64,000 nt of DNA. Source: Candidatus Iainarchaeum sp. (lineage in GTDB: Archaea; Iainarchaeota; Iainarchaeia; Iainarchaeales; GCA-2688035). Below, in pieces: positions 6,309 through 52,262 of the stretch. The notes beneath the pieces are model-generated. The model worked only from the letters and a program-made list of their open reading frames with translations. It was not told the origin of the DNA and searched no databases. The stretch covers positions 16,137 through 80,136 of the forward strand of contig JAFCCO010000003.1 of the NCBI GenBank assembly GCA_017610175.1. The letters run 5' to 3'. Position 1 is the first letter of the stretch, and every line of letters starts with the position of its first letter. The translations under genes were made by a program, and so were the position numbers.

Positions 6309-6661
6309 AAAACAGGGGCCAACTTCAGCTTGAAGCAACTATTTGCATCGCCCTGCTCTTCGCAATCACGGCGGCGGCACTCTCAACAGTTGCAGAAATT
6401 AAAACGCAACACCTTGAAAGCAATGAACTTCTTTTTGCTAAAGCAGGCGCACACAAATGCAGCCTTATTGCGGGAACAATTTTTGGCAACGGGAGTGGAA
6501 AAGTTGAAACAATGGAAAACTGTTTTGCCGCCGGAGAACACAAAGTTGTGTACAAATTTAACGACAAAGAAAAATCCAGCTACAGCCTGTCCCGCATTTC
6601 ATCAACCCAAACAGGCAGTCGTACAATCCTTGAGGCTGAGGTGAATGCCCATTACCAATAA
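6305..6661 (+). CDS. Class III signal peptide (prepilin-like) protein
   Basis: N-terminus 'MKNRGQLQLEATICIALLFAITAAAL' has a basic residue, then Gly, then a hydrophobic stretch. Its start overlaps the upstream stop (ATGA). Confidence 0.45.
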   Translation: MKNRGQLQLEATICIALLFAITAAALSTVAEIKTQHLESNELLFAKAGAHKCSLIAGTIFGNGSGKVETMENCFAAGEHKVVYKFNDKEKSSYSLSRISSTQTGSRTILEAEVNAHYQ

Positions 6662-7100: not shown

Positions 7101-7461
7101 CGGGCTTTTTGCAAGCATTGAAGCAACCCTGAGCCTGCTTATGTTGATAGCGGTTGTTGTTTCAATGCCAAGAACCGAACAGCCAAACCTTGAGACCCTG
7201 CATATTCTGCAAAAAGAACATGATCTTCTGCTTATTTGGGCAAAAACCTGGCCTGTGCAGCCCGATGAAATGGAAGGTGACTTTAGGAAATTATTCCCCG
7301 GAAAGAACGGGGCAGTGGAACTGAATACCGACTTGAGGGAAATTGGGGCACTGGAAGGAGAGATTGTTTCGTCCGAAATGCATTTTCTTGACCGGTCAGG
7401 AAACTGGAACAGGGTTGTTGTTTACGTGGTCAAGAAAAACAAGCCCATTTTCTTTTCTTAG
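7091..7461 (+). CDS. Pilin-like protein (putative GTG start)
   Basis: The ORF track shows 7030..7461. A putative GTG start at 7091 gives 'MKSNGLFASIEATLSLLMLIAVVVSM', which overlaps the upstream stop. Confidence 0.3.
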
Positions 7462-7830
7462 CAGAATGAATGACTTTTCAGATATCGACTGGCGCAATGA
7501 AGGAATTTCGTTTGGAAAAGTTAGGGGGATTGTTTTTTCCACGCCAAGAGCCTTGCTTTCCACCCTAAGAACAAGCTCGTGCCCATCTGATTCAATAAGC
7601 CATTCGTTTACCGGCCTGGCTTCAAGTTGAAAGGAAGAGCCGTTGCCAAGAAATGAAAGTTCCCCCGCACGCAGTTCAAGCGAGGAAGCGAAATTCTTTG
7701 CTGCAAGAACATCGCTTGCATAAAAAGCAAGCGAATAAGTCCTGTACATTAATGGCGCAAGGGCTGCAAAAAAGGAAAGCAGAATCGCCAAAAGCAGGAG
7801 ATATTCAATGCTTGCCTGAGCTCTTGCCAT
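7396..7830 (-). CDS. Archaeal type IV pilin-like protein
   Basis: N-terminus 'MARAQASIEYLLLLAILLSFFAALAP' follows the (R/K)(A/G)Q..EYLLL pattern also seen in the 29.5 kb pilins. Confidence 0.55.
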   Translation of the reverse strand: MARAQASIEYLLLLAILLSFFAALAPLMYRTYSLAFYASDVLAAKNFASSLELRAGELSFLGNGSSFQLEARPVNEWLIESDGHELVLRVESKALGVEKTIPLTFPNEIPSLRQSISEKSFILLRKENGLVFLDHVNNNPVPVS

Positions 7831-7835
7831 TCAAA

Positions 7836-8036
7836 TCAAATCTTATCGATTTCCTTGAATATCTTGTCACTCTTTTCCTGAATCAATTTTGTCCCCTCCT
7901 CGCTTGTTTCACGAAGTTGTGAAACAAAAAGCAGAACAAGGGCTACAACAGCCGCAAGCACAATAATCAATTCAATTGAAATTTGTGCCCTTTCACAGCC
8001 AACAGTTTCCAAAAACATAAAAAGAAACCTGCCCAA
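7836..8036 (-). CDS. Short pilin-like protein
   Basis: Contains 'ERAQISIELIIVLAAVVALVLLF'. It is 66 aa and tandem with 7396..7830. Confidence 0.5.
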   Translation of the reverse strand: MGRFLFMFLETVGCERAQISIELIIVLAAVVALVLLFVSQLRETSEEGTKLIQEKSDKIFKEIDKI

Positions 8037-21826: not shown

Positions 21827-22132
21827 TCAATCTAATTTTGACAGCTTGCCCGGACGCCTTGCGCCCTTGCTTTTTCCAAGGAAAAAATAAAAGAATGCAA
21901 AAATTGAGTGCTCAACAAGGTAAAGCACAACCATCCCTGAAATGAAATAAAATTTGCTTTCCTCCGTAAGGAAATCAAACGTAGGATTTGAAGCCTCAAC
22001 AGACTCCCCTAAAATGGATGTGCGAATCTGGCCCGCAAAATTGAACAGGAAAAATATGACCACAACAGTTACTGCAAAAGCAAGAACTATTGAGAGAAGA
22101 TACTCAAACTGCACCTGAGCACGCGAATCCAT
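21827..22132 (-). CDS. Archaeal type IV pilin-like protein
   Basis: N-terminus 'MDSRAQVQFEYLLSIVLAFAVTVVVIFFLF'. Confidence 0.5.
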   Translation of the reverse strand: MDSRAQVQFEYLLSIVLAFAVTVVVIFFLFNFAGQIRTSILGESVEASNPTFDFLTEESKFYFISGMVVLYLVEHSIFAFFYFFLGKSKGARRPGKLSKLD

Positions 22133-25318: not shown

Positions 25319-27232
25319 TTGCCTTCTTTATCTGATTTTTCTATGCCTAAAACGGATTACTTAAAGGAACTTATGGAGAAAGTGAAGGCGGCTAAAAAAA
25401 AGCAGCCAGTGGAAGCTCCTGAAAAAGAAGAAGAAGCACCAGTAGAGGAATTTGAATCCCCTAAAGACGTACCCGCCCCAATCCAACAAATCGAAAGTAT
25501 TCCAACAGTTTCTGAAAAAGACAAGATTTCACAGGAAATGGAGGATTTGCTTAAGCAGCCCACCCCCCAACCAAAAGCTGTTGCAGAACCGATTCCAGAA
25601 CCTGCGAAAACAGTCCCTGTGGCAGTACCCGAACCAACCCCTGCAACAGCTCCAATTGAAGAGCCTGTTGTCGCAACAAGGGATGAAGTTCAGGCAAAGG
25701 AAAGTGTGGCTGAAGGGGTTGCGGAGATTCCAAAAGAAGAGCCTGTTGAGAAAAAAAGCGAAGCAGAAAAAGACATAGAAAAGGCTGGGAAAAAAATTGA
25801 GGTTGCAAGCTACGGCGATGTAAAAATTTACAAGATTCCCGGAAAGCCACTTCTTTACTACTTTATTCCAGTCCCGCGATCCACTGGGGCGGAAAAAACA
25901 ATAATCAACACAATAAAAGAAGCCGCAACAAGGCTAATCACAATCTCACCCTACAAAATAAGGGAACCAGAGCAAAGAAGGGCGGTTTACAAGCAAAAGA
26001 TTATGGAAATTCTCAGGGGAAGCCCGGAACTGCGGATTCCTGAAAGAAGATTTGAATTTTACACAGATGCTGTTGTAAGGGAAATGGTCGGCTATGGCAT
26101 AATAGACCCGCTTGTAAGGGACGATAAGCTTGAGGAAATTATGGTCATAGGCCCAAAGAAGCCTGTTTACCTATTCCACAGGGATTATGAAATGATGACC
26201 TCAAACATTGAGTTTTACAACGATCAGGAAATTATTGATTTGATAAACAGAATTGCAAGGGAAATAGGTAGAAGGGTTGACATAAGCTCGCCGCTGCTGG
26301 ATGCACGCCTGCCTGACGGCAGCAGGGTCAACGCCACAATCCCCCCGGCTTCCGTCGCAGGTTCAACAATTACAATCAGAAAATTCAGAAAACAGCCATA
26401 CAGCGTAATTGACCTTATTAATATGAACACGCTTTCAGCGGAATGCGCTGCCTTCCTCTGGCTTGCGGTTGAAGGGCTTGGAGTGAAACCGGCAAACGTG
26501 CTGATTGCAGGGGGGACCGGTTCAGGAAAAACCACCCTGCTCAACGTCCTTGCATCATTTGTTCCGGAAAATGAAAGAATTGTCACAATTGAAGACACCG
26601 CCGAATTGAATTTGCCGCTCAAGCACCTAATCCGCATGGAAGCAAGACCGCCTGGGCTTGAGGGAAAGGGTGAACTGACACTGGACATTCTGACAAAAAA
26701 CAGCCTCAGGATGAGACCCGACAGGATATTGGTTGGGGAAATAAGGCACGACGAAGCATTCAGCCTGTTCACCGCAATGAACACAGGCCACGCAGGAAGC
26801 ATGGGAACGGTGCACGCAAACAGCGCGCAGGAAACACTTATCAGAATAAAAAGCCCCCCAATGTCCGTTCCGGAAGTAATGCTCAGCGGACTGGATCTTA
26901 TCCTAATAGAGCACAGAATCCACGACAAGAAAAAGGGAACAATAAGAAGGCTTACTGAAATTGCAGAAGTGACAGGCGTGCTTGTGGGAAAGGCACAAAC
27001 GCAAACAATTTTCGAACGCGACCCTGTGGAAGACTCAATAATCAAAACAAACGTTCCAATAAGCTATCTCAAAGAACTGCAGGACTTTTCCGGATTCAGC
27101 AGAAAGCAAATTGACGCAGAACTCAATGACAGAGCAGCACTGCTAAATACCCTGGTTAAAAAAAATATACACTTAATGGAAGACGTGCACAAAGAAATGC
27201 AAAACTATTTGTTGAAAAAGAAGGAAGCTTAA
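25319..27232 (+). CDS. Type IV pilus/archaellum assembly ATPase (TadA/FlaI/GspE family) with a long disordered N-terminal extension
   Basis: Walker A 'IAGGTGSGKTTLLNVL', 'LIRMEARPPG', Walker B 'RILVGEIR' and His box 'MNTGHAGSMGTVHANS'. The first roughly 160 aa are Pro/Ala/Glu/Val-rich and low complexity. Confidence 0.85.
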   Translation: MPSLSDFSMPKTDYLKELMEKVKAAKKKQPVEAPEKEEEAPVEEFESPKDVPAPIQQIESIPTVSEKDKISQEMEDLLKQPTPQPKAVAEPIPEPAKTVPVAVPEPTPATAPIEEPVVATRDEVQAKESVAEGVAEIPKEEPVEKKSEAEKDIEKAGKKIEVASYGDVKIYKIPGKPLLYYFIPVPRSTGAEKTIINTIKEAATRLITISPYKIREPEQRRAVYKQKIMEILRGSPELRIPERRFEFYTDAVVREMVGYGIIDPLVRDDKLEEIMVIGPKKPVYLFHRDYEMMTSNIEFYNDQEIIDLINRIAREIGRRVDISSPLLDARLPDGSRVNATIPPASVAGSTITIRKFRKQPYSVIDLINMNTLSAECAAFLWLAVEGLGVKPANVLIAGGTGSGKTTLLNVLASFVPENERIVTIEDTAELNLPLKHLIRMEARPPGLEGKGELTLDILTKNSLRMRPDRILVGEIRHDEAFSLFTAMNTGHAGSMGTVHANSAQETLIRIKSPPMSVPEVMLSGLDLILIEHRIHDKKKGTIRRLTEIAEVTGVLVGKAQTQTIFERDPVEDSIIKTNVPISYLKELQDFSGFSRKQIDAELNDRAALLNTLVKKNIHLMEDVHKEMQNYLLKKKEA

Positions 27233-28414
27233 ATGGCAAACCTCAATTTTCTGAAGAAAAAGATTTCCGAAAAAAACAAGCAAAAGAAACAGAACTTAGG
27301 CGAGCCCAAAGACGCAAAAGAAGAAGCCGTGGACATGGACCGCGTTGAACAAATTGTAAAGACAATGAAGAAAAAGTACAAGGAACAGGGAATCGAATTT
27401 GAAGAAGTCGGCGGGAGATTAAGGGAACTGCGCGGAATAATAGCAGAGGGACGCACGGGGGAAATTGAAATACAAAAAGTTGAAGCCCTTCCCGACATGA
27501 AAAATCCAATTGTCAAAACGGTCGGCAATGTTTACATCAAAATGAGAAAAATTTTCGAGCCCATCACAAAGCTCGCAATCAGGCTTCCACAATTTGATAT
27601 GCTTGCATTCTACCTTTATTCCGCAAACATGAGATATTCCGCAAGGCAATATCTTGCATTATCGGTTACAGGCGCGGGAATAATTCTTGCATTTGCATTT
27701 TTTATAATAAGCATTATCATTGCATTGCTTGACATCCCACTAATCACAAAGGTTCTGCTAATTCCGCTTGTGTCAGTGTTTGTATTCTTCTTTTCACTCA
27801 TAGTACTGCTGCTTATTCCAAGCCAAAAGGCAAAAGAAAGGGGCGCTGCAATAAGCATAGAACTTCCGTTTGCACTGCGGCACATGGCAACAGAACTTAG
27901 GGCGGGAATAGGTCTGTACAGGACAATTCAAGCTATTGCCACCGCAGGCTATGGTGCGCTAAGTGAAGAGTTTGCACGCACAATAAACGAAATTGAAGAG
28001 GGGACAGACACAAAAGATGCACTAAGGCACCTTGCACTAAGAACACAAAGCCAGGCACTAAGAAACGCACTCATGCACATAATCAGGGCACTTAAAACAG
28101 GCGGAAACCTAAGCGAAATAATGAACGATATCGCAGAGGATGTTGCATTTGAGCTAAGAATGAGCACAAGGGATTTTGCCGCCAAAATGAACTTTTTTGG
28201 GGTAATATTCATTTTTGCAGCCATAGTAATGCCAGTTATAATTGCCATACTTGGCGGAATAAGAAACAGCCCGATCGGGGAATCAGGGGGAGTAAGCTTT
28301 AAGGACATGCTTCCGCTTGGGCCTGAAGTAATTGCGGGAATATACCTAATACTAATGCCCCTTATGCTGCTCATGTTTATACTGTACATAAAAGCTTCTC
28401 AACCAAAGGTGTAA
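27233..28414 (+). CDS. TadB/TadC (FlaJ)-like polytopic pilus platform protein
   Basis: Cytoplasmic N-domain, then T2SSF-like segments 'LPFALRHMATELRAGIGLYRTIQAIA' and 'ALRHLALRTQSQALRNALMHIIRALKTGGNL', with flanking TM helices. Confidence 0.7.
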   Translation: MANLNFLKKKISEKNKQKKQNLGEPKDAKEEAVDMDRVEQIVKTMKKKYKEQGIEFEEVGGRLRELRGIIAEGRTGEIEIQKVEALPDMKNPIVKTVGNVYIKMRKIFEPITKLAIRLPQFDMLAFYLYSANMRYSARQYLALSVTGAGIILAFAFFIISIIIALLDIPLITKVLLIPLVSVFVFFFSLIVLLLIPSQKAKERGAAISIELPFALRHMATELRAGIGLYRTIQAIATAGYGALSEEFARTINEIEEGTDTKDALRHLALRTQSQALRNALMHIIRALKTGGNLSEIMNDIAEDVAFELRMSTRDFAAKMNFFGVIFIFAAIVMPVIIAILGGIRNSPIGESGGVSFKDMLPLGPEVIAGIYLILMPLMLLMFILYIKASQPKV

Positions 28415-28418
28415 CAAG

Positions 28419-29351
28419 ATGGCTAGACAAAATTTGATTAAAAAACTGCTGGAAAAATACAAGTGGTATTTGAAAAGGGCAGACTTCAATATCCCTGTAG
28501 AAGTCTGGGTGCCGGTTTCGTTCGGCCTGGCAATAGCCTCCGCCGTAATCCTGTTCCTGTTTATTGCCCTGTTAAATTTGCCTGTAAGCCCACTAATGTC
28601 GCTTATAATTTTCCTGGTTGTAGTTGACTTAATGCTTGGATACCCCTACATAAAGGCAACTTCAAGAATTGATGCAATGGAAGCCGCCTTGCCGGATGCA
28701 CTAAAGCAAATGGCGGACACACTCAAAGCAGGCGGAACATACGAATACGCACTGCGTGAAATTGCAACATCACAATACGGGCCGCTTACAAAGGAAATGG
28801 GCCTTGCATTGAGAAAACTAGAGGAGGGTGAAACCCTTGAAAACAGCCTCAAAACTTTTGCAGACAACATAGGGTCAAGGCTAATAAGCAGAAGTGTTGC
28901 GGTAATAATTGACAGCATAAAGGCAGGAGCCGGGCTTGCAACAGTCCTTGATGAAATTGCAGAAGACATAAGGGCAATGCACAGAATAGGGCGTGAAAGA
29001 AGAAGCGGAACCGCCCTCCAAGTAATGTTTATGGTTGCGGCAGGAAGCCTTGTTGCCCCAATAATTCTCGGACTAGTTTCAAGCATAATTGGGCTCTTTA
29101 TTCAGGCTTCAGCAGCACTTGACATAACCGCCGCGCAAAAAGCCCAAGCACTGAGCGTAAAAGACATGATTGTGTTTCTGATGCAATCATACATCCTAGT
29201 TGAGGTAACTGCCTCAGGAGTTATGGTATCTTTAATGCGAAACGGAAACATAAGCAAAAGTATTATATACATCCCTATCCTCTTACTAGTAGCGTATATT
29301 ACATACTATACCTCGTCATTTGTATCAATGATAGCAATTGGAGGAGTTTAA
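28419..29351 (+). CDS. TadB/TadC (FlaJ)-like platform protein, second paralog
   Basis: T2SSF-like repeats 'ALPDALKQMADTLKAGGTYEYALREIA' and 'ATVLDEIAEDIRAMHRIGRERRS', plus TM helices. Confidence 0.7.
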   Translation: MARQNLIKKLLEKYKWYLKRADFNIPVEVWVPVSFGLAIASAVILFLFIALLNLPVSPLMSLIIFLVVVDLMLGYPYIKATSRIDAMEAALPDALKQMADTLKAGGTYEYALREIATSQYGPLTKEMGLALRKLEEGETLENSLKTFADNIGSRLISRSVAVIIDSIKAGAGLATVLDEIAEDIRAMHRIGRERRSGTALQVMFMVAAGSLVAPIILGLVSSIIGLFIQASAALDITAAQKAQALSVKDMIVFLMQSYILVEVTASGVMVSLMRNGNISKSIIYIPILLLVAYITYYTSSFVSMIAIGGV

Positions 29352-29518
29352 TGAATTTTGCAGAGGAAGAAAAAGCCCAGGGTTCAATGGAATACCTCAT
29401 AATATTGGCAGGCACCGTATTTGTAGCGGTTGCAGTAGGATTGTATCTTAAAAGTGTTCCGTCACAAACAGAACACAGAGTAGCTCAAGAAACACATGCA
29501 GCAATTCACGGTTTTTAA
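29351..29518 (+). CDS. Short Flp-like archaeal pilin (class III signal peptide)
   Basis: 'MNFAEEEKAQGSMEYLIILAGTVFVAVAV', 55 aa, with GGAGG-like SD upstream. Confidence 0.55.
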   Translation: MNFAEEEKAQGSMEYLIILAGTVFVAVAVGLYLKSVPSQTEHRVAQETHAAIHGF

Positions 29519-29537
29519 AAAAAATGGAGGAAATAAG

Positions 29538-29714
29538 ATGGATGAAAAAGCACAAGGAGCACTAGAATACCTACTCCTAATAGGAGGCGCAGTACTAGTA
29601 GCAGCAATCGTCCTCACACTCGTCACAGGACTTGCCACAACAGGACAACACACAACACATGTAGGTGGCACAAAGGTCAGTGGCCAGCTAAACGCGCTTA
29701 ATGCACTGTCATAA
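29538..29714 (+). CDS. Short Flp-like archaeal pilin
   Basis: 'MDEKAQGALEYLLLIGGAVLVAAIVLTLV' with SD 'GGAGG'. The first 74 nt are identical to 29746..29819. Confidence 0.6.
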   Translation: MDEKAQGALEYLLLIGGAVLVAAIVLTLVTGLATTGQHTTHVGGTKVSGQLNALNALS

Positions 29715-29745
29715 ATATTATATTAATACGCGGAGGTGCAAAAAA

Positions 29746-29925
29746 ATGGATGAAAAAGCACAAGGAGCACTAGAATACCTACTCCTAATAGGAGGCGCAG
29801 TACTAGTAGCAGCAATCGTAATTGTTCTGCTTTCAGGACTGACAGGTACACCGCTCCACGCAAGCGAACAAGCAAATGCAAAACTGAACATAGGGTACTC
29901 AAGCCTTAACGCCCAGGCAAAATAA
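29746..29925 (+). CDS. Short Flp-like archaeal pilin (tandem duplicate)
   Basis: 'MDEKAQGALEYLLLIGGAVLVAAIVIVLL'. The 5' 74 nt are identical to the upstream copy and the C-termini diverge. Confidence 0.6.
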   Translation: MDEKAQGALEYLLLIGGAVLVAAIVIVLLSGLTGTPLHASEQANAKLNIGYSSLNAQAK

Positions 29926-29951
29926 TTGCCTGGCAAAAAGAGGATCTAAAC

Positions 29952-30107
29952 ATGGACGAAAAGGCTCAGGGGGCAATAGAATACTTGCTTTTGATAGCGG
30001 GAGCAGTGCTAGTAGCAGCAGCAGTTCTTGCATTTATGACATTTATAGTGCCGCAAACAAAGAATACCGCTAATACAAAACTGGTAAATTTCCTCCACGC
30101 CATCTGA
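29952..30107 (+). CDS. Short Flp-like archaeal pilin
   Basis: 'MDEKAQGAIEYLLLIAGAVLVAAAVLAF', 51 aa. It is below the length cut-off of the ORF track. Confidence 0.55.
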   Translation: MDEKAQGAIEYLLLIAGAVLVAAAVLAFMTFIVPQTKNTANTKLVNFLHAI

Positions 30108-30143
30108 GCCAAATTATTTTTACTTAAAAACAAAGGTTTTTGC

Positions 30144-30317
30144 ATGGAAGAAAAAGCACAGGTTGCATTTGAATATCTCTTAACCGCCCTTTTTGGAATA
30201 GTGCTTGCAATATCCGCAGCAATACTGGTTGACACCATAAGGGGAATCTCACTGGTAGCGCAAGGTGAAATACTTGAGTACAGGGATGACACAATTTCTG
30301 CATTGATGCAGGGCTGA
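30144..30317 (+). CDS. Short Flp-like archaeal pilin
   Basis: 'MEEKAQVAFEYLLTALFGIVLAISAAILV', 57 aa. It is not in the ORF track. Confidence 0.5.
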   Translation: MEEKAQVAFEYLLTALFGIVLAISAAILVDTIRGISLVAQGEILEYRDDTISALMQG

Positions 30318-30326
30318 GGTGTTCCA

Positions 30327-31412
30327 ATGCCCTGGAATCAAATTCTCGTTCTCATTTCCATAGCAGGATTAGGGATTGCAACATACACTGATTTAAAGCA
30401 AAGAATGGTTAGGAACTGGCTCACCTATTCCCTTATTGCAGGGGGGCTTGCAGGAAACCTTGTTCTTGCAATAATCGAATCACGCCCCGAAATATTCATA
30501 CTGTCCGCAATAGCAACAGTGTTCGGATTTGGCTTTGCATACCTACTGTGGAAAATGGGCGTGTGGGCCGGAGGAGATGTAAAGCTGTTTACCGGTTTGG
30601 CCGCACTTAACCCGGTTGCCCCGCTTGCATTTGGCTGGATCTCACTATTCCCAATTGCACTTTTTGTGTTCTCCATTTTCGCAGTACTCCCCTACGGAAT
30701 AATTATTGCACTGCACGGCCTGATGAAACGAAATGAAGAAAGGAAGAAAGTAATCAAAGACTCGGCAGTGAAAGTAAAGCAAACAATTCAAATCGGGCTT
30801 GCAATAGTGGGGCTTTCATGGATTCTGGGAATGTTCAACATACCCGCACTAGCCATAATCCCCATATTAATCGTGTTTGGAATGATAAAAAACGCAAAAG
30901 CAATGTGGGCAATTGCCACATTGCTATTTGCGGCAAGTGCATTTAATGCCCCGATTGCAAGCATTACAAATTTCGTTGTAATCTTTGCCCTGTTCTTTGG
31001 ATTCTACCTATTCATAAAACTTTACACAGTATCCAAAATAATCCTGAGGGAAGAGAAAAAAATAAGTGAACTGGAAGAGGGGGACATTCCTGTTGAATCA
31101 ATAATTGAATTGGATGGAAACGTAAAAAGAGTAGCCCCCCTGGAAATAAAAACAATTATTAACTACCTCGCGAATAATAAAGTACAGGAACTGCTGCAAT
31201 TACTGCAGTCAAAAGGGAGGGTGATTGCAAACAACAAGAGAGCAAGAGGGCTTACGGACGAGGAAATAGAAGAGCTCAACGGGCTTGTTAAAAGCAAAAA
31301 GTTGAGCAATCTGCTTCAGGTGAAGCTTTCTGCACCGTTTGTTCCCGCATTGTTAATTGCATATATCACACTTTACTTGATTGGAGATTTTGTATGGGCT
31401 TTGGTCTTATGA
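30327..31412 (+). CDS. Prepilin/preflagellin peptidase (A24 family; PibD/FlaK/TadV-like) with C-terminal extension
   Basis: First catalytic Asp in TM1 ('IATYTDLKQRMVRN') and second Asp in 'WAGGDVKLF', in a polytopic membrane core. A roughly 110-aa charged, coiled-coil-like region and a final TM helix follow the core. Confidence 0.7.
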   Translation: MPWNQILVLISIAGLGIATYTDLKQRMVRNWLTYSLIAGGLAGNLVLAIIESRPEIFILSAIATVFGFGFAYLLWKMGVWAGGDVKLFTGLAALNPVAPLAFGWISLFPIALFVFSIFAVLPYGIIIALHGLMKRNEERKKVIKDSAVKVKQTIQIGLAIVGLSWILGMFNIPALAIIPILIVFGMIKNAKAMWAIATLLFAASAFNAPIASITNFVVIFALFFGFYLFIKLYTVSKIILREEKKISELEEGDIPVESIIELDGNVKRVAPLEIKTIINYLANNKVQELLQLLQSKGRVIANNKRARGLTDEEIEELNGLVKSKKLSNLLQVKLSAPFVPALLIAYITLYLIGDFVWALVL

Positions 31413-31888
31413 AAAACAGGAAAGGACAAATATCTATTGAGTTTATACTCATAATACTCATCGTTCTTGTATACATAACTTCCGTTATTCAGCCAACGGT
31501 AAAAATAGCCACCGAAACAACCTGGGACATTACAAGGCTTTCTGAGACAAAATTTGCAGCACAAAAACTTGCAGCCGCAATAAACCAGCTTGAAGCAAGC
31601 GGCGGAGACGGGAAAAAAACAATAAGCCTGTTTGTCCCAAAAGGCGCGGTGGTTGAATGCACCGGCATAGCATCAATAGACTTCACAGCGTCACTGGGCA
31701 GCTTGTCAGTTCCCCCTGTGTGCGATCCTATTGGAAGGGAATGCGCCGGATCAATTGAACTCGTTTCAGGAATAAGCGGCCTTAACTGTTTTGGAGGAAG
31801 CCCAATTGATGCAAGTGCAAGCAACATCTTTAGAAAAGTTGAAGTTATAAAGGACATAACCGGAATTAGGGTTGCTTATGCCTCTTAA
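31409..31888 (+). CDS. Pilin-like protein with class III signal peptide and a globular C-terminal domain
   Basis: 'MKNRKGQISIEFILIILIVLVYI'. The start overlaps the peptidase stop, and the Cys-containing C-terminal domain is about 130 aa. Confidence 0.5.
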   Translation: MKNRKGQISIEFILIILIVLVYITSVIQPTVKIATETTWDITRLSETKFAAQKLAAAINQLEASGGDGKKTISLFVPKGAVVECTGIASIDFTASLGSLSVPPVCDPIGRECAGSIELVSGISGLNCFGGSPIDASASNIFRKVEVIKDITGIRVAYAS

Positions 31889-32225
31889 CAAAAAAGGGCA
31901 GGTGAGCTTTGAACTGTTAATGCTGACAGCCATCATTTTTGTAACCGCCATCTGGACAAGCGGATACTACCTAGATATAAAGGATTCAACACTGGCAATA
32001 CAATTATCAAAAGCCCAGTCAATTCTGGAAATTGAGGAAGAAGACGACCTCTACACAATTGAAAAAATAGAATTTGTGGAAGTAACGAACGAACAAATAG
32101 ATATTACAGTAAGATTCTGCCCGGACTCAACAATTGATTTTGATGAAGGGGCGCTTGCAACGAAGATAACACAAAACACAAAGTACACCACCGCAAACAT
32201 TGGAGTGGTGGACGGCTCCTGCTAA
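31872..32225 (+). CDS. Pilin-like protein (class III signal peptide)
   Basis: 'MLMPLNKKGQVSFELLMLTAIIFVTAIW'. The gene overlaps its upstream neighbour. Confidence 0.45.
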   Translation: MLMPLNKKGQVSFELLMLTAIIFVTAIWTSGYYLDIKDSTLAIQLSKAQSILEIEEEDDLYTIEKIEFVEVTNEQIDITVRFCPDSTIDFDEGALATKITQNTKYTTANIGVVDGSC

Positions 32226-51924: not shown

Positions 51925-52160
51925 AAAAAAGAGCCAAAAGAAAGGGGCTTGGGTTGGGAACCGCAAGCAAAACGCCCATGCCAATGTCCGCTGCAAGTGA
52001 ATTAAGGCACGAACTAAAAACAATTAGGGCAAAAGCGCAGAGGCAGACGTTAACGCTTAAGGAAAGGCAGCGCCAGGAAACAATATGGAAACATTTAGTG
52101 AAGAAAAACTGGCACAGGTACTTCCCAAAAAAAGTGCTTTCAGGATGGAAAACGAAATGA
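51921..52160 (+). CDS. Small basic hypothetical protein
   Basis: 79 aa, Lys/Arg-rich. The stop abuts the tRNA on the opposite strand, and coding status is uncertain. Confidence 0.2.
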   Translation: MKKRAKRKGLGLGTASKTPMPMSAASELRHELKTIRAKAQRQTLTLKERQRQETIWKHLVKKNWHRYFPKKVLSGWKTK

Positions 52161-52230
52161 GCCCGGAGGGATTCGAACCCTCGATCTCTCCGTCCGAAGC
52201 GGAGTGCCTTATCCAAACTGGGCTACGGGC
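52160..52230 (-). tRNA. tRNA-Arg (anticodon UCG)
   Basis: The reverse complement GCCCGTAGCCCAGTTTGGATAAGGCACTCCGCTTCGGACGGAGAGATCGAGGGTTCGAATCCCTCCGGGC folds as a cloverleaf. It has a 7-bp acceptor stem, a D-arm 'AGCCCAGTTTGGATAAGGC', anticodon stem CTCCG/CGGAG with loop CTTCGGA (anticodon TCG) and a T-arm 'GGTTCGAATCC'. CCA is not encoded. Confidence 0.8.
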
Positions 52231-52231
52231 C

Positions 52232-52262
52232 CATCGAGAATGTTTATAATTATTGCGTTATA
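52232..52262 (-). promoter_or_regulatory. Putative TATA/BRE promoter for tRNA-Arg
   Basis: On the minus strand 'AATAATTATAAACA' lies about 20-25 nt upstream of the tRNA 5' end, which is the typical archaeal TATA spacing. Confidence 0.3.

Follow-up and report, generated by a model that had tools for sequence, protein, structure and literature searches.

A window of 64,000 nt from Candidatus Iainarchaeum sp. (assembly GCA_017610175.1, contig JAFCCO010000003.1, positions 16,137 to 80,136; "the window" below refers to this whole stretch) contains a putative pilus operon in which five short pilin genes, p1 to p5, stand between the gene for a TadC-like platform protein and that for a prepilin peptidase. 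Two of these pilin genes, p2 and p3, share an identical 74-nt block at their 5' ends. Based on a comparison with related genomes, this identity is probably the result of gene conversion between old paralogs, limited to the conserved head of the genes.

Identical heads of p2 and p3

The two copies of the block are located on the + strand at 29538..29611 and 29746..29819 and match in 74/74 positions. The identity runs from the A of the ATG to the second position of codon 25, does not continue past these limits in either direction, and is far more extensive than chance would allow. The exact repeat had already been reported in an earlier note on this DNA, and our self-repeat search agrees with it, giving 88% identity over 101 nt for the p2/p3 pair and only 67% with a third copy, p4. 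As also stated there, the block encodes the leader, or signal peptide, together with the hydrophobic core, and the PF04021 domain spans residues 4-26. Using the head and both tails in blastn and tblastn searches, we found no further full or partial copies in the 64 kb. Past the block, nucleotide identity between p2 and p3 falls at once to ~41% (53/90 positions differ). The earlier description of the C-termini as completely divergent goes too far, as the tails of p2 and p3 are equal in length, align without gaps at ~28-30% amino-acid identity (9/32) and represent one and the same pilin class at that position in related genomes; 5/9 of the codons for shared amino acids differ. Searching with a 30-mer of the block gave no matches in JGI metagenome contigs, and exact look-ups of the p2, peptidase and TadC-like proteins of the window had none on record in the contig index.

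For the comparison with relatives, we used a motif-based survey of 80 related loci from species-representative genomes and eleven contigs obtained via exact protein look-up (loci and proteins carry L and P numbers, respectively). A search with the p3 protein identified tails of the same type in P0122, P0124 and P0128, with P0122 being the ortholog in L088/L090 (18/31 tail residues identical) and P0124 the one in L087. L088 and L090 represent one population (99.7% identical) from another project and have p2, p3, p4, p5 and the peptidase gene in the same order as the window, including conserved sequence upstream of p3. In L091, a third lineage with a TadC-like protein of 72.5% identity, p2 is also followed by a p3-type gene. 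Because the p2-p3 tandem with orthologous tails is present in L088/L090 as well as in L091, the duplication predates the split of these lineages and p2 and p3 are, as judged from this gene order, old and not recent paralogs. Between the p2 and p3 heads of one genome, there are 0/74 nt differences in the window, 3/74 in L090 and 10/74 in L091. The earlier note had offered recent duplication or gene conversion as the source of the repeat; the recurrence of identical heads described below speaks for conversion, and the recent duplication is not supported in view of the tandems in L088/L090 and L091, the latter with 10/74 differences between its heads.

Within the L088/L090 population, the two contigs differ at three of 987 nt, all located from -4 to +21 relative to p3 (180-350 in L088, 478-648 in L090). 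With a coverage of only 2-3x, either errors or a small patch of recombination may account for them, and p4 of the same contig was rejected as a donor of the three single-nucleotide polymorphisms in the p3 head, as it does not carry them.

Identical heads on diverged tails are also found elsewhere in the family. Among 49 within-locus pairs of slot-B pilin genes, the class to which p2, p3 and p4 belong (see below), 11 have ≤3 differences in 63 head positions, as compared to ~60% of same-amino-acid codons that differ between the slot-B heads of different loci. Exact 5' runs of 57-98 nt on diverged tails occur in L007, L017, L030, L055, L062, L072 and L082, and it is this recurrence in seven other genomes that leads us to prefer a conversion confined to the head. 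The heads of p2 and p4 differ at just 2/74 nt in L082, as compared to 18-20 in the window, L003, L085 and L090, and p2 and p4 are old paralogs, each having its own orthologs in many genomes; in the window itself, the p4 head has not been homogenised with p2/p3 (18/74 nt differences). Two tandem genes for 96-aa pilins in L029 (7289 and 7673) are identical over 291/291 nt and represent a truly recent whole-gene duplication, unlike the head-only identity elsewhere.

For the pilins themselves, we assume that the prepilin would be inserted into the membrane and cut by the adjacent A24 peptidase at [K/R][A/G]↓Q (the arrow marks the predicted cleavage site), which corresponds to MDEKA↓QGALEY with Glu+5 and Tyr+6 in p2 and p3. 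Cleavage at A↓Q is inferred because these sites match those of the proven M. maripaludis EppA substrates. The mature subunit of 46-54 residues, essentially all-helical, would then be polymerised by the ATPase and two half-size platform proteins, with p2, p3 and p4 as the likely filament subunits, which combine an invariant head with fast-evolving and presumably exposed tails. Protein-level constraint would hold the heads of p2 and p3 alike enough for homologous recombination, and gene conversion would periodically erase the synonymous differences between them, with the conversion tract bounded by the limits of similarity, which are the ATG at its 5' end and approximately codon 25 at its 3' end. 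Conversion together with unequal crossing-over could also lead to the slot-B copy number of 1-4 among the relatives. The idea of the earlier note that the assembly interface is kept and the exposed tail is varied fits this family-wide pattern. Its further proposal of a substrate for recombinational surface variation is not supported in the sense of a programmed system, as each copy is a complete gene with a start codon and neither silent nor partial cassettes occur in the window. Between direct repeats, a crossover would do no more than alter the number of copies, which also argues against a programmed variation and matches the slot-B variation among relatives. A literature search for gene conversion among pilin paralogs yielded nothing specific to archaeal pilins.

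The block in a distant lineage and alternative explanations

Several points weigh against gene conversion as the complete explanation. Intragenomic conversion alone does not explain the near-identical block in the distant L088/L090 lineage, where the p2 and p3 heads differ from the window block by 0-2 nt (97-100% identity). When the window is compared with L090 in sliding steps, identity is 30-75% except in two islands, where it reaches 30/30. L088/L090 are no closer to the window than other relatives, with protein identities of 58% for the peptidase, 78% for p4, 79% for p5 and 53% for the next gene. In all four of these genes, around half of the codons for shared residues are different, and so are 12/18 in the p3 tail. 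Besides, 72% of the codons in the block are A-ending in comparison to a window/genome mean of 28%, and CTA is used for 4/5 of its Leu residues, as compared to 6% of the Leu codons in the window. Some nucleotide-level force may act as well. In addition, the case for conversion is drawn from sequence patterns alone, and the roles suggested below for p1 and p5 from conservation patterns only.

A possible, but rather doubtful extension would be that the 74-nt head is a nucleotide-level unit shared among diverged Iainarchaeia, serving either as a homology arm for the exchange of tails or patches or being frozen by a requirement at the level of mRNA or translation. Such a unit would account for the 97-100% islands in a synonymously saturated background and for the aberrant codon usage. 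Both variants can also be formulated as alternatives to conversion between paralogs of one genome.

According to the first alternative, selection at the nucleotide level fixes the block in paralogs and orthologs without any recombination, and the selected feature could be A-ending or specific codons tied to expression level, co-translational membrane targeting, or unstructured 5' mRNA. It is in line with the identity of the block in L088/L090 though its neighbours are synonymously saturated, and with its extreme codon usage. Across L001-L086 and the window, no other locus pair with a TadC identity <78% has ≤5 head differences in 63 nt, as all pairs with so few differences have a TadC identity of ≥78%, mostly ≥89%. 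Moreover, slot-B genes favour A-ending four-fold codons class-wide over the TadC gene of the same locus (0.48 vs 0.32; 93/114 genes, p = 1e-14), and on account of this preference some codon-level selection is to be assumed in these genes. Nevertheless, we consider selection as the sole cause of the identity unlikely: heads of relatives that encode the same amino acids depart from that of the window at 5-15/59 nt, p2 and p3 of L091 are not identical (10/74), the codons of L081 are G/C-ending throughout, and in the window the bias is restricted to the head and absent from the tails. The predicted RNA folding of the block with its leaders is unremarkable as well (z -1.4, -1.0 and -0.55), so that an RNA structure freezing the block was rejected, with minimum free energies within ~1.4 sd (standard deviations) of shuffled sequences. 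Optimisation towards common codons was also discarded as the reason for the synonymous identity, as the block uses the rarest Leu codon of the genome four times.

The block further holds two CTAG sites, and this tetranucleotide is about nine-fold under-represented in the window, with 28 sites, whereas base composition predicts ~240 and a second-order model 47. Of these 28, ten are found between 28423 and 30009 in the TadC-like gene and pilin array, and the two 74-nt blocks account for four of them. Among the large open reading frames (ORFs), CTA-Leu usage is highest in the two platform genes (22% and 17%, vs a median of 5%).

As a second alternative, heads could have been exchanged between co-occurring Iainarchaeia lineages as a portable homology arm for patches or tail cassettes and then have spread within the genome by conversion. 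This would correspond to the surface variation by recombination proposed in the note, but acting at the level of populations. The two islands in which the window and L090 are 100% identical, the hypervariable tails, the slot-B copy number of 1-4 and a codon usage of the block that is foreign to the genome are compatible with this scenario. The same applies to head distances that do not follow genome distances: in L001, L087 and L081, with a TadC identity of 71-73%, the heads are 15-18 nt off, whereas those of L082 and L002 (TadC 65-70%) are only 6-9 nt away from the head of the window. Against this stands that no donor was found and that no near-identical tail occurs in other lineages, the best match to the p3 tail having 58% amino-acid identity. 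Moreover, both crossovers would have to be placed inside the 74 nt in two genes and in both lineages. We regard such an exchange as about as unlikely as selection acting on its own.

A recent tandem duplication followed by very fast diversifying selection on the tail is highly improbable. Genuine recent whole-gene copies are present in the family (the L029 pair), and slot-B tails diverge fast even among orthologs. However, L090 and L091 carry orthologs of p2 and p3 in unchanged order, and p3-type tails occur in L087 and as P0128. The drop from 100% to ~41% identity within a few bases and the differing codons for shared tail residues cannot be achieved by point mutation that spares 74 nt. An assembly artefact, in which two strain alleles of one pilin gene were stitched together across the 74-mer, is conceivable for a metagenome-assembled contig, but very unlikely, given that the same tandem is present in L088, L090 and L091, which were assembled independently from other samples; besides, the spacers flanking p3 are unique, its upstream sequence is conserved in L090, and the 74-nt repeat is shorter than standard reads. 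A diversity-generating retroelement was rejected, as the tails have no template-like nucleotide similarity; no reverse transcriptase was found among the ORFs scanned against Pfam, a screen of the window that was not exhaustive.

The five pilins and their layout in related genomes

The five + strand pilin ORFs of 51-59 aa that the earlier note had placed at 29351-30317 are confirmed, with 55, 58, 59, 51 and 57 aa for p1 to p5. Across the 80 loci and the closer relatives, the TadC-like gene is followed by a conserved layout of slot A, slot B, slot C, the peptidase and two larger pilin-like proteins; in total, the array is arranged in this way at about 85 related loci. Pilin repertoires of related genomes, whose comparison the note had suggested, thus share their layout, have hypervariable tails and contain one to four slot-B copies.

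Slot A corresponds to p1 in the window (29351..29518, +; 26.0 bits for PF04021). This pilin has the leader MNFAEEEKA↓Q and a body with the conserved pattern '..VGLYLKS..HGF', the pattern in relatives being '..KEEKAQGSxEYL..VGLYLK..', and its orthologs take the first position after TadC in most related loci. Slot B, represented by p2 to p4, comprises genes in which the head 'QGALEYLLLIGGAVLVAAIV' hardly varies and the tails of ~25-110 residues are highly variable. The p2 gene (29538..29714, +; 30.1 bits) encodes MDEKA↓QGALEYLLLIGGAVLVAAIV and then the variable tail, and has orthologs of 58 aa in L002, L003, L081, L082, L085, L090 and L091. In p3 (29746..29925, +; 30.1 bits), the p2 head is joined to another tail; most close relatives (L002, L003, L081, L082, L085) have four small pilins and are without p3. 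The p4 gene (29952..30107, +; 28.7 bits) has orthologs in related loci, and its tail type is conserved as '..VPQTK..AN.KL.NFL..I'. Slot C is occupied by p5 (30144..30317, +), which begins with MEEKA↓QVAFEYLLT.. and has no Pfam match. Its counterparts in the relatives have 55-58 aa (one called ORF 62 aa), and in a 30-sequence alignment this class is conserved over its full length. A comparison of the p5 family with the slot-B profile gave an hhalign probability of 96.9% (E 1.4e-10) over the first 36-39 residues, which represent the head. Based on its conservation, p5 is probably a minor or an initiating/priming pilin.

Two of the relatives have additional peculiarities in slot B. In L090, an extra slot-B-headed pilin of 55 aa (95-262) lies in front of p2, giving four slot-B-type genes in the array; the end of its tail, ..HILHGIS, resembles ..HGF of slot A, and this pilin may be a head/tail chimera. 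In L082, the p4-type gene at 6331-6486 has TTG (6331) where other slot-B genes have ATG, according to the start choice of the survey, and the gene caller of the contig starts nine bases upstream at 6322, giving a 54-aa product.

The designation of the five proteins as Flp-like in the earlier note holds in part. They can be assigned to the pilins, with p1-p4 all above the gathering cut-off of 23.7 bits for PF04021 (Class_IIIsignal; DUF361/UPF0333) and p5 linked by profile, and the evolutionary and functional analogy to Flp pilins also appears justified. Membership in the Flp family is not supported, as none of the five matches Pfam Flp_Fap (PF04964) at E ≤ 0.1; an NCBIfam scan returned no family for p2-p5. 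Putative class III processing sites can be read from the translations, with the K-A↓Q motif in all five: EEKA↓QGSME in p1, DEKA↓QGALE in p2 and p3, DEKA↓QGAIE in p4 and EEKA↓QVAFE in p5. Each pilin has a short charged leader ending in K-A, followed by Q+1, an acidic residue at +5, Tyr+6 and about 20 hydrophobic residues. E+5 and Y+6 are found in 5/5 pilins, and the -1 residue is Ala here and Gly in many relatives (KG↓QGALEY), as compared to the motif G↓xxxxEY.

The AlphaFold2 model of p2, calculated from a 63-sequence alignment, is a single helix of residues 3-57 with a mean pLDDT of 88. A Foldseek search of the PDB with this single-helix model gave no matches, and a PDB sequence search with p2 gave only spurious transmembrane matches. 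When the slot-B profile was compared with solved Tad pilins, it aligned over nearly the full length with 8U1K PilA (E 0.53) and the Flp-family pilin 8U2B (E 1.6), weak values that are not significant.

Regarding expression, the earlier note had assigned a GGAGG-like ribosome-binding site to each gene, which applies to p1, p2 and p3 with GGAGG 7-12 nt upstream, less so to p4 with GAGGA and hardly to p5 with only AAGG. The spacers between the pilin genes have a length of 19-36 nt. T5 runs occur in the spacers after p1 (29519-29537) and after p4 (30108-30143), and A/T-rich TATA-like stretches are located before p3 (29715-29745) and before p5 (30108-30143). In archaea, such elements could serve to adjust the stoichiometry of the pilins, as partial terminators or as internal promoters.

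The operon and its relation to known pilus systems

Besides the pilins, the cluster includes an ATPase, two platform genes, a peptidase and two larger pilin-like genes, all tightly packed on the + strand. The assembly ATPase (TadA/FlaI-like secretion ATPase, 25319..27232, +) matches Pfam T2SSE with 163.7 bits, and its NCBIfam scores of 299 bits for FlaI and 242 bits for the TadA family are both under the equivalog cut-offs. The first platform gene (TadB-like, 27233..28414, +) and the second one (TadC-like, 28419..29351, +) each contain one PF00482 (T2SSF) stretch (72 and 58.7 bits). The stop codon of the TadC-like gene overlaps the start of p1 (TAATG), and its homologs are labelled TadC, FlaJ or T2SS F family (type II secretion system) in metagenome-assembled genomes of Diapherotrites/Iainarchaeum, the nearest being 72-73% identical.

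Only 9 nt downstream of p5 follows the gene for the prepilin (class III signal) peptidase of the A24 family (30327..31412, +), with 48.5 bits for Peptidase_A24 and 49.4 bits for Arc_PepC, both above cut-off. An archaeal C-terminal domain is present, and the translation has both catalytic-type motifs, YTDLKQR and GGDVKLF. According to NCBIfam it is not an EppA ortholog (NF053826, 41 bits vs a cut-off of 450), and FlaK also scores far below its cut-off (35 vs 330). Two larger class III signal proteins come next, both candidate minor pilins. The first one (31394..31888, +; PF04021 29.2 bits; RKG↓QISIEF) has 164 aa, or 159 aa when starting from 31409, and is kept downstream of the peptidase in related loci. 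For the second one (31872..32225, +; 115-117 aa; KKG↓QVSFEL), PF04021 remains below cut-off at 19.4 bits, and its position is also kept in related loci. Since the flanking genes have housekeeping functions, with RFC small subunit, Nre and ThrRS upstream and a TctA transporter downstream, the locus is chromosomal. Pfam scans of the flanking ORFs turned up neither a secretin nor TadZ, with no search aimed at either.

Judged by its gene content, the locus is an Epd-like/Tad-like type IV pilus operon (archaeal system 1, to which the bacterial Tad/Flp system is sister) on the chromosome of a member of the Iainarchaeia (Diapherotrites, DPANN). It has two single-T2SSF platform genes and short pilins of 51-59 aa without a globular C-terminal domain, and the combination of two single-domain platform genes with short pilins is the hallmark of the Epd-like/Tad clade (PMC6668835). 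System 1 has been reported in methanogens, Thermococcales and DPANN (bioRxiv 10.64898/2026.04.22.720090). By analogy, we expect the locus to work like the Epd pili of M. maripaludis and bacterial Tad/Flp pili, which makes it an expected variation on known systems and not a new kind.

The Epd pilus of M. maripaludis, or system 1, is likewise encoded by a single cluster with an ATPase, two single-T2SSF platform genes, several short pilins and an A24 peptidase dedicated to the system, and shares the PF04021 matches and the processing motif [K/R][G/A]↓Q with Q+1 (PMC4371748; PMC6668835; bioRxiv 10.64898/2026.04.22.720090). The processing sites of its pilins are RAQI, KGQV, KGQL and KGQI (PMC4371748), and those in the window are KAQG, KAQV, KGQI and KGQV. 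In contrast to this system, the host here belongs to DPANN, and the peptidase and ATPase are far below the NCBIfam equivalog cut-offs for EppA, FlaI and TadA. Further differences are that the window's pilins, likely including the major ones, all stand in the operon directly after the platform genes, and that the slot-B heads have E+5/Y+6 and hardly vary across the class. With bacterial Tad/Flp systems, which are thought to derive from an Epd-like archaeal system (PMC6668835), the locus shares very short helix-only pilins, the G/A↓xxxxEY arrangement, a split TadB/TadC-like platform and tandem pilin paralogs in the operon, but it differs in the missing Flp_Fap match, the archaeal chromosome and the archaeal C-terminal domain of the peptidase.

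A conserved head on divergent bodies of paralogous pilins is also known from Haloferax volcanii, where PilA1-PilA6 have an almost fully conserved hydrophobic head, which is essential for assembly, and differing C-terminal parts, and each of them can be the major pilin (PMC4371748). In contrast, these PilA proteins are members of another pilin family, their genes are scattered and not regulated together with those for assembly, and the comparison was made at the protein level. Neisseria pilE/pilS resembles the window in the conserved 5' part, the variable 3' part and the homologous recombination between copies. However, every copy in the window is a complete gene that has its start codon and, in most cases, a ribosome-binding site that can be recognised, the 64 kb contain no silent cassettes, and it is the head, not the variable tail, that has been homogenised.

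A dependence on cell-to-cell contact is assumed for DPANN archaea, and pili are therefore likely central to their lifestyle. Our data provide a class-wide picture of the pilin array in Iainarchaeia, with three conserved pilin classes, a near-invariant head, hypervariable tails and a variable copy number. The concerted evolution of tandem pilin heads separates the assembly-constrained part from the part that faces the environment, and the tails of slot B would be the place to look for host or surface specificity. What is modestly added to present knowledge is that pilin arrays of DPANN show recurrent concerted evolution restricted to the heads, together with one case of cross-lineage identity of a block; the latter alone, if confirmed in more genomes, would raise a new question.

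Apart from the operon, class III signal-like ORFs were also detected at other sites in the window. Two of them, at 7396-7830 (-; 144 aa, MARA↓QASIEYLL) and 7836-8018 (-; 60 aa, ..CERA↓QISIELII), adjoin a Cdc48 ATPase gene far from the assembly genes, with PF04021 scores of ~18 bits, below cut-off. A further ORF of 101 aa at 21827-22132 (-), located between the RFC small-subunit and Nre genes, has a p5-like head, MDSRA↓QVQFEYLLS, and no Pfam match. The sole RNA gene detected in the window with Rfam and ARAGORN is a tRNA-Arg (TCG) at 52157-52233 (-).

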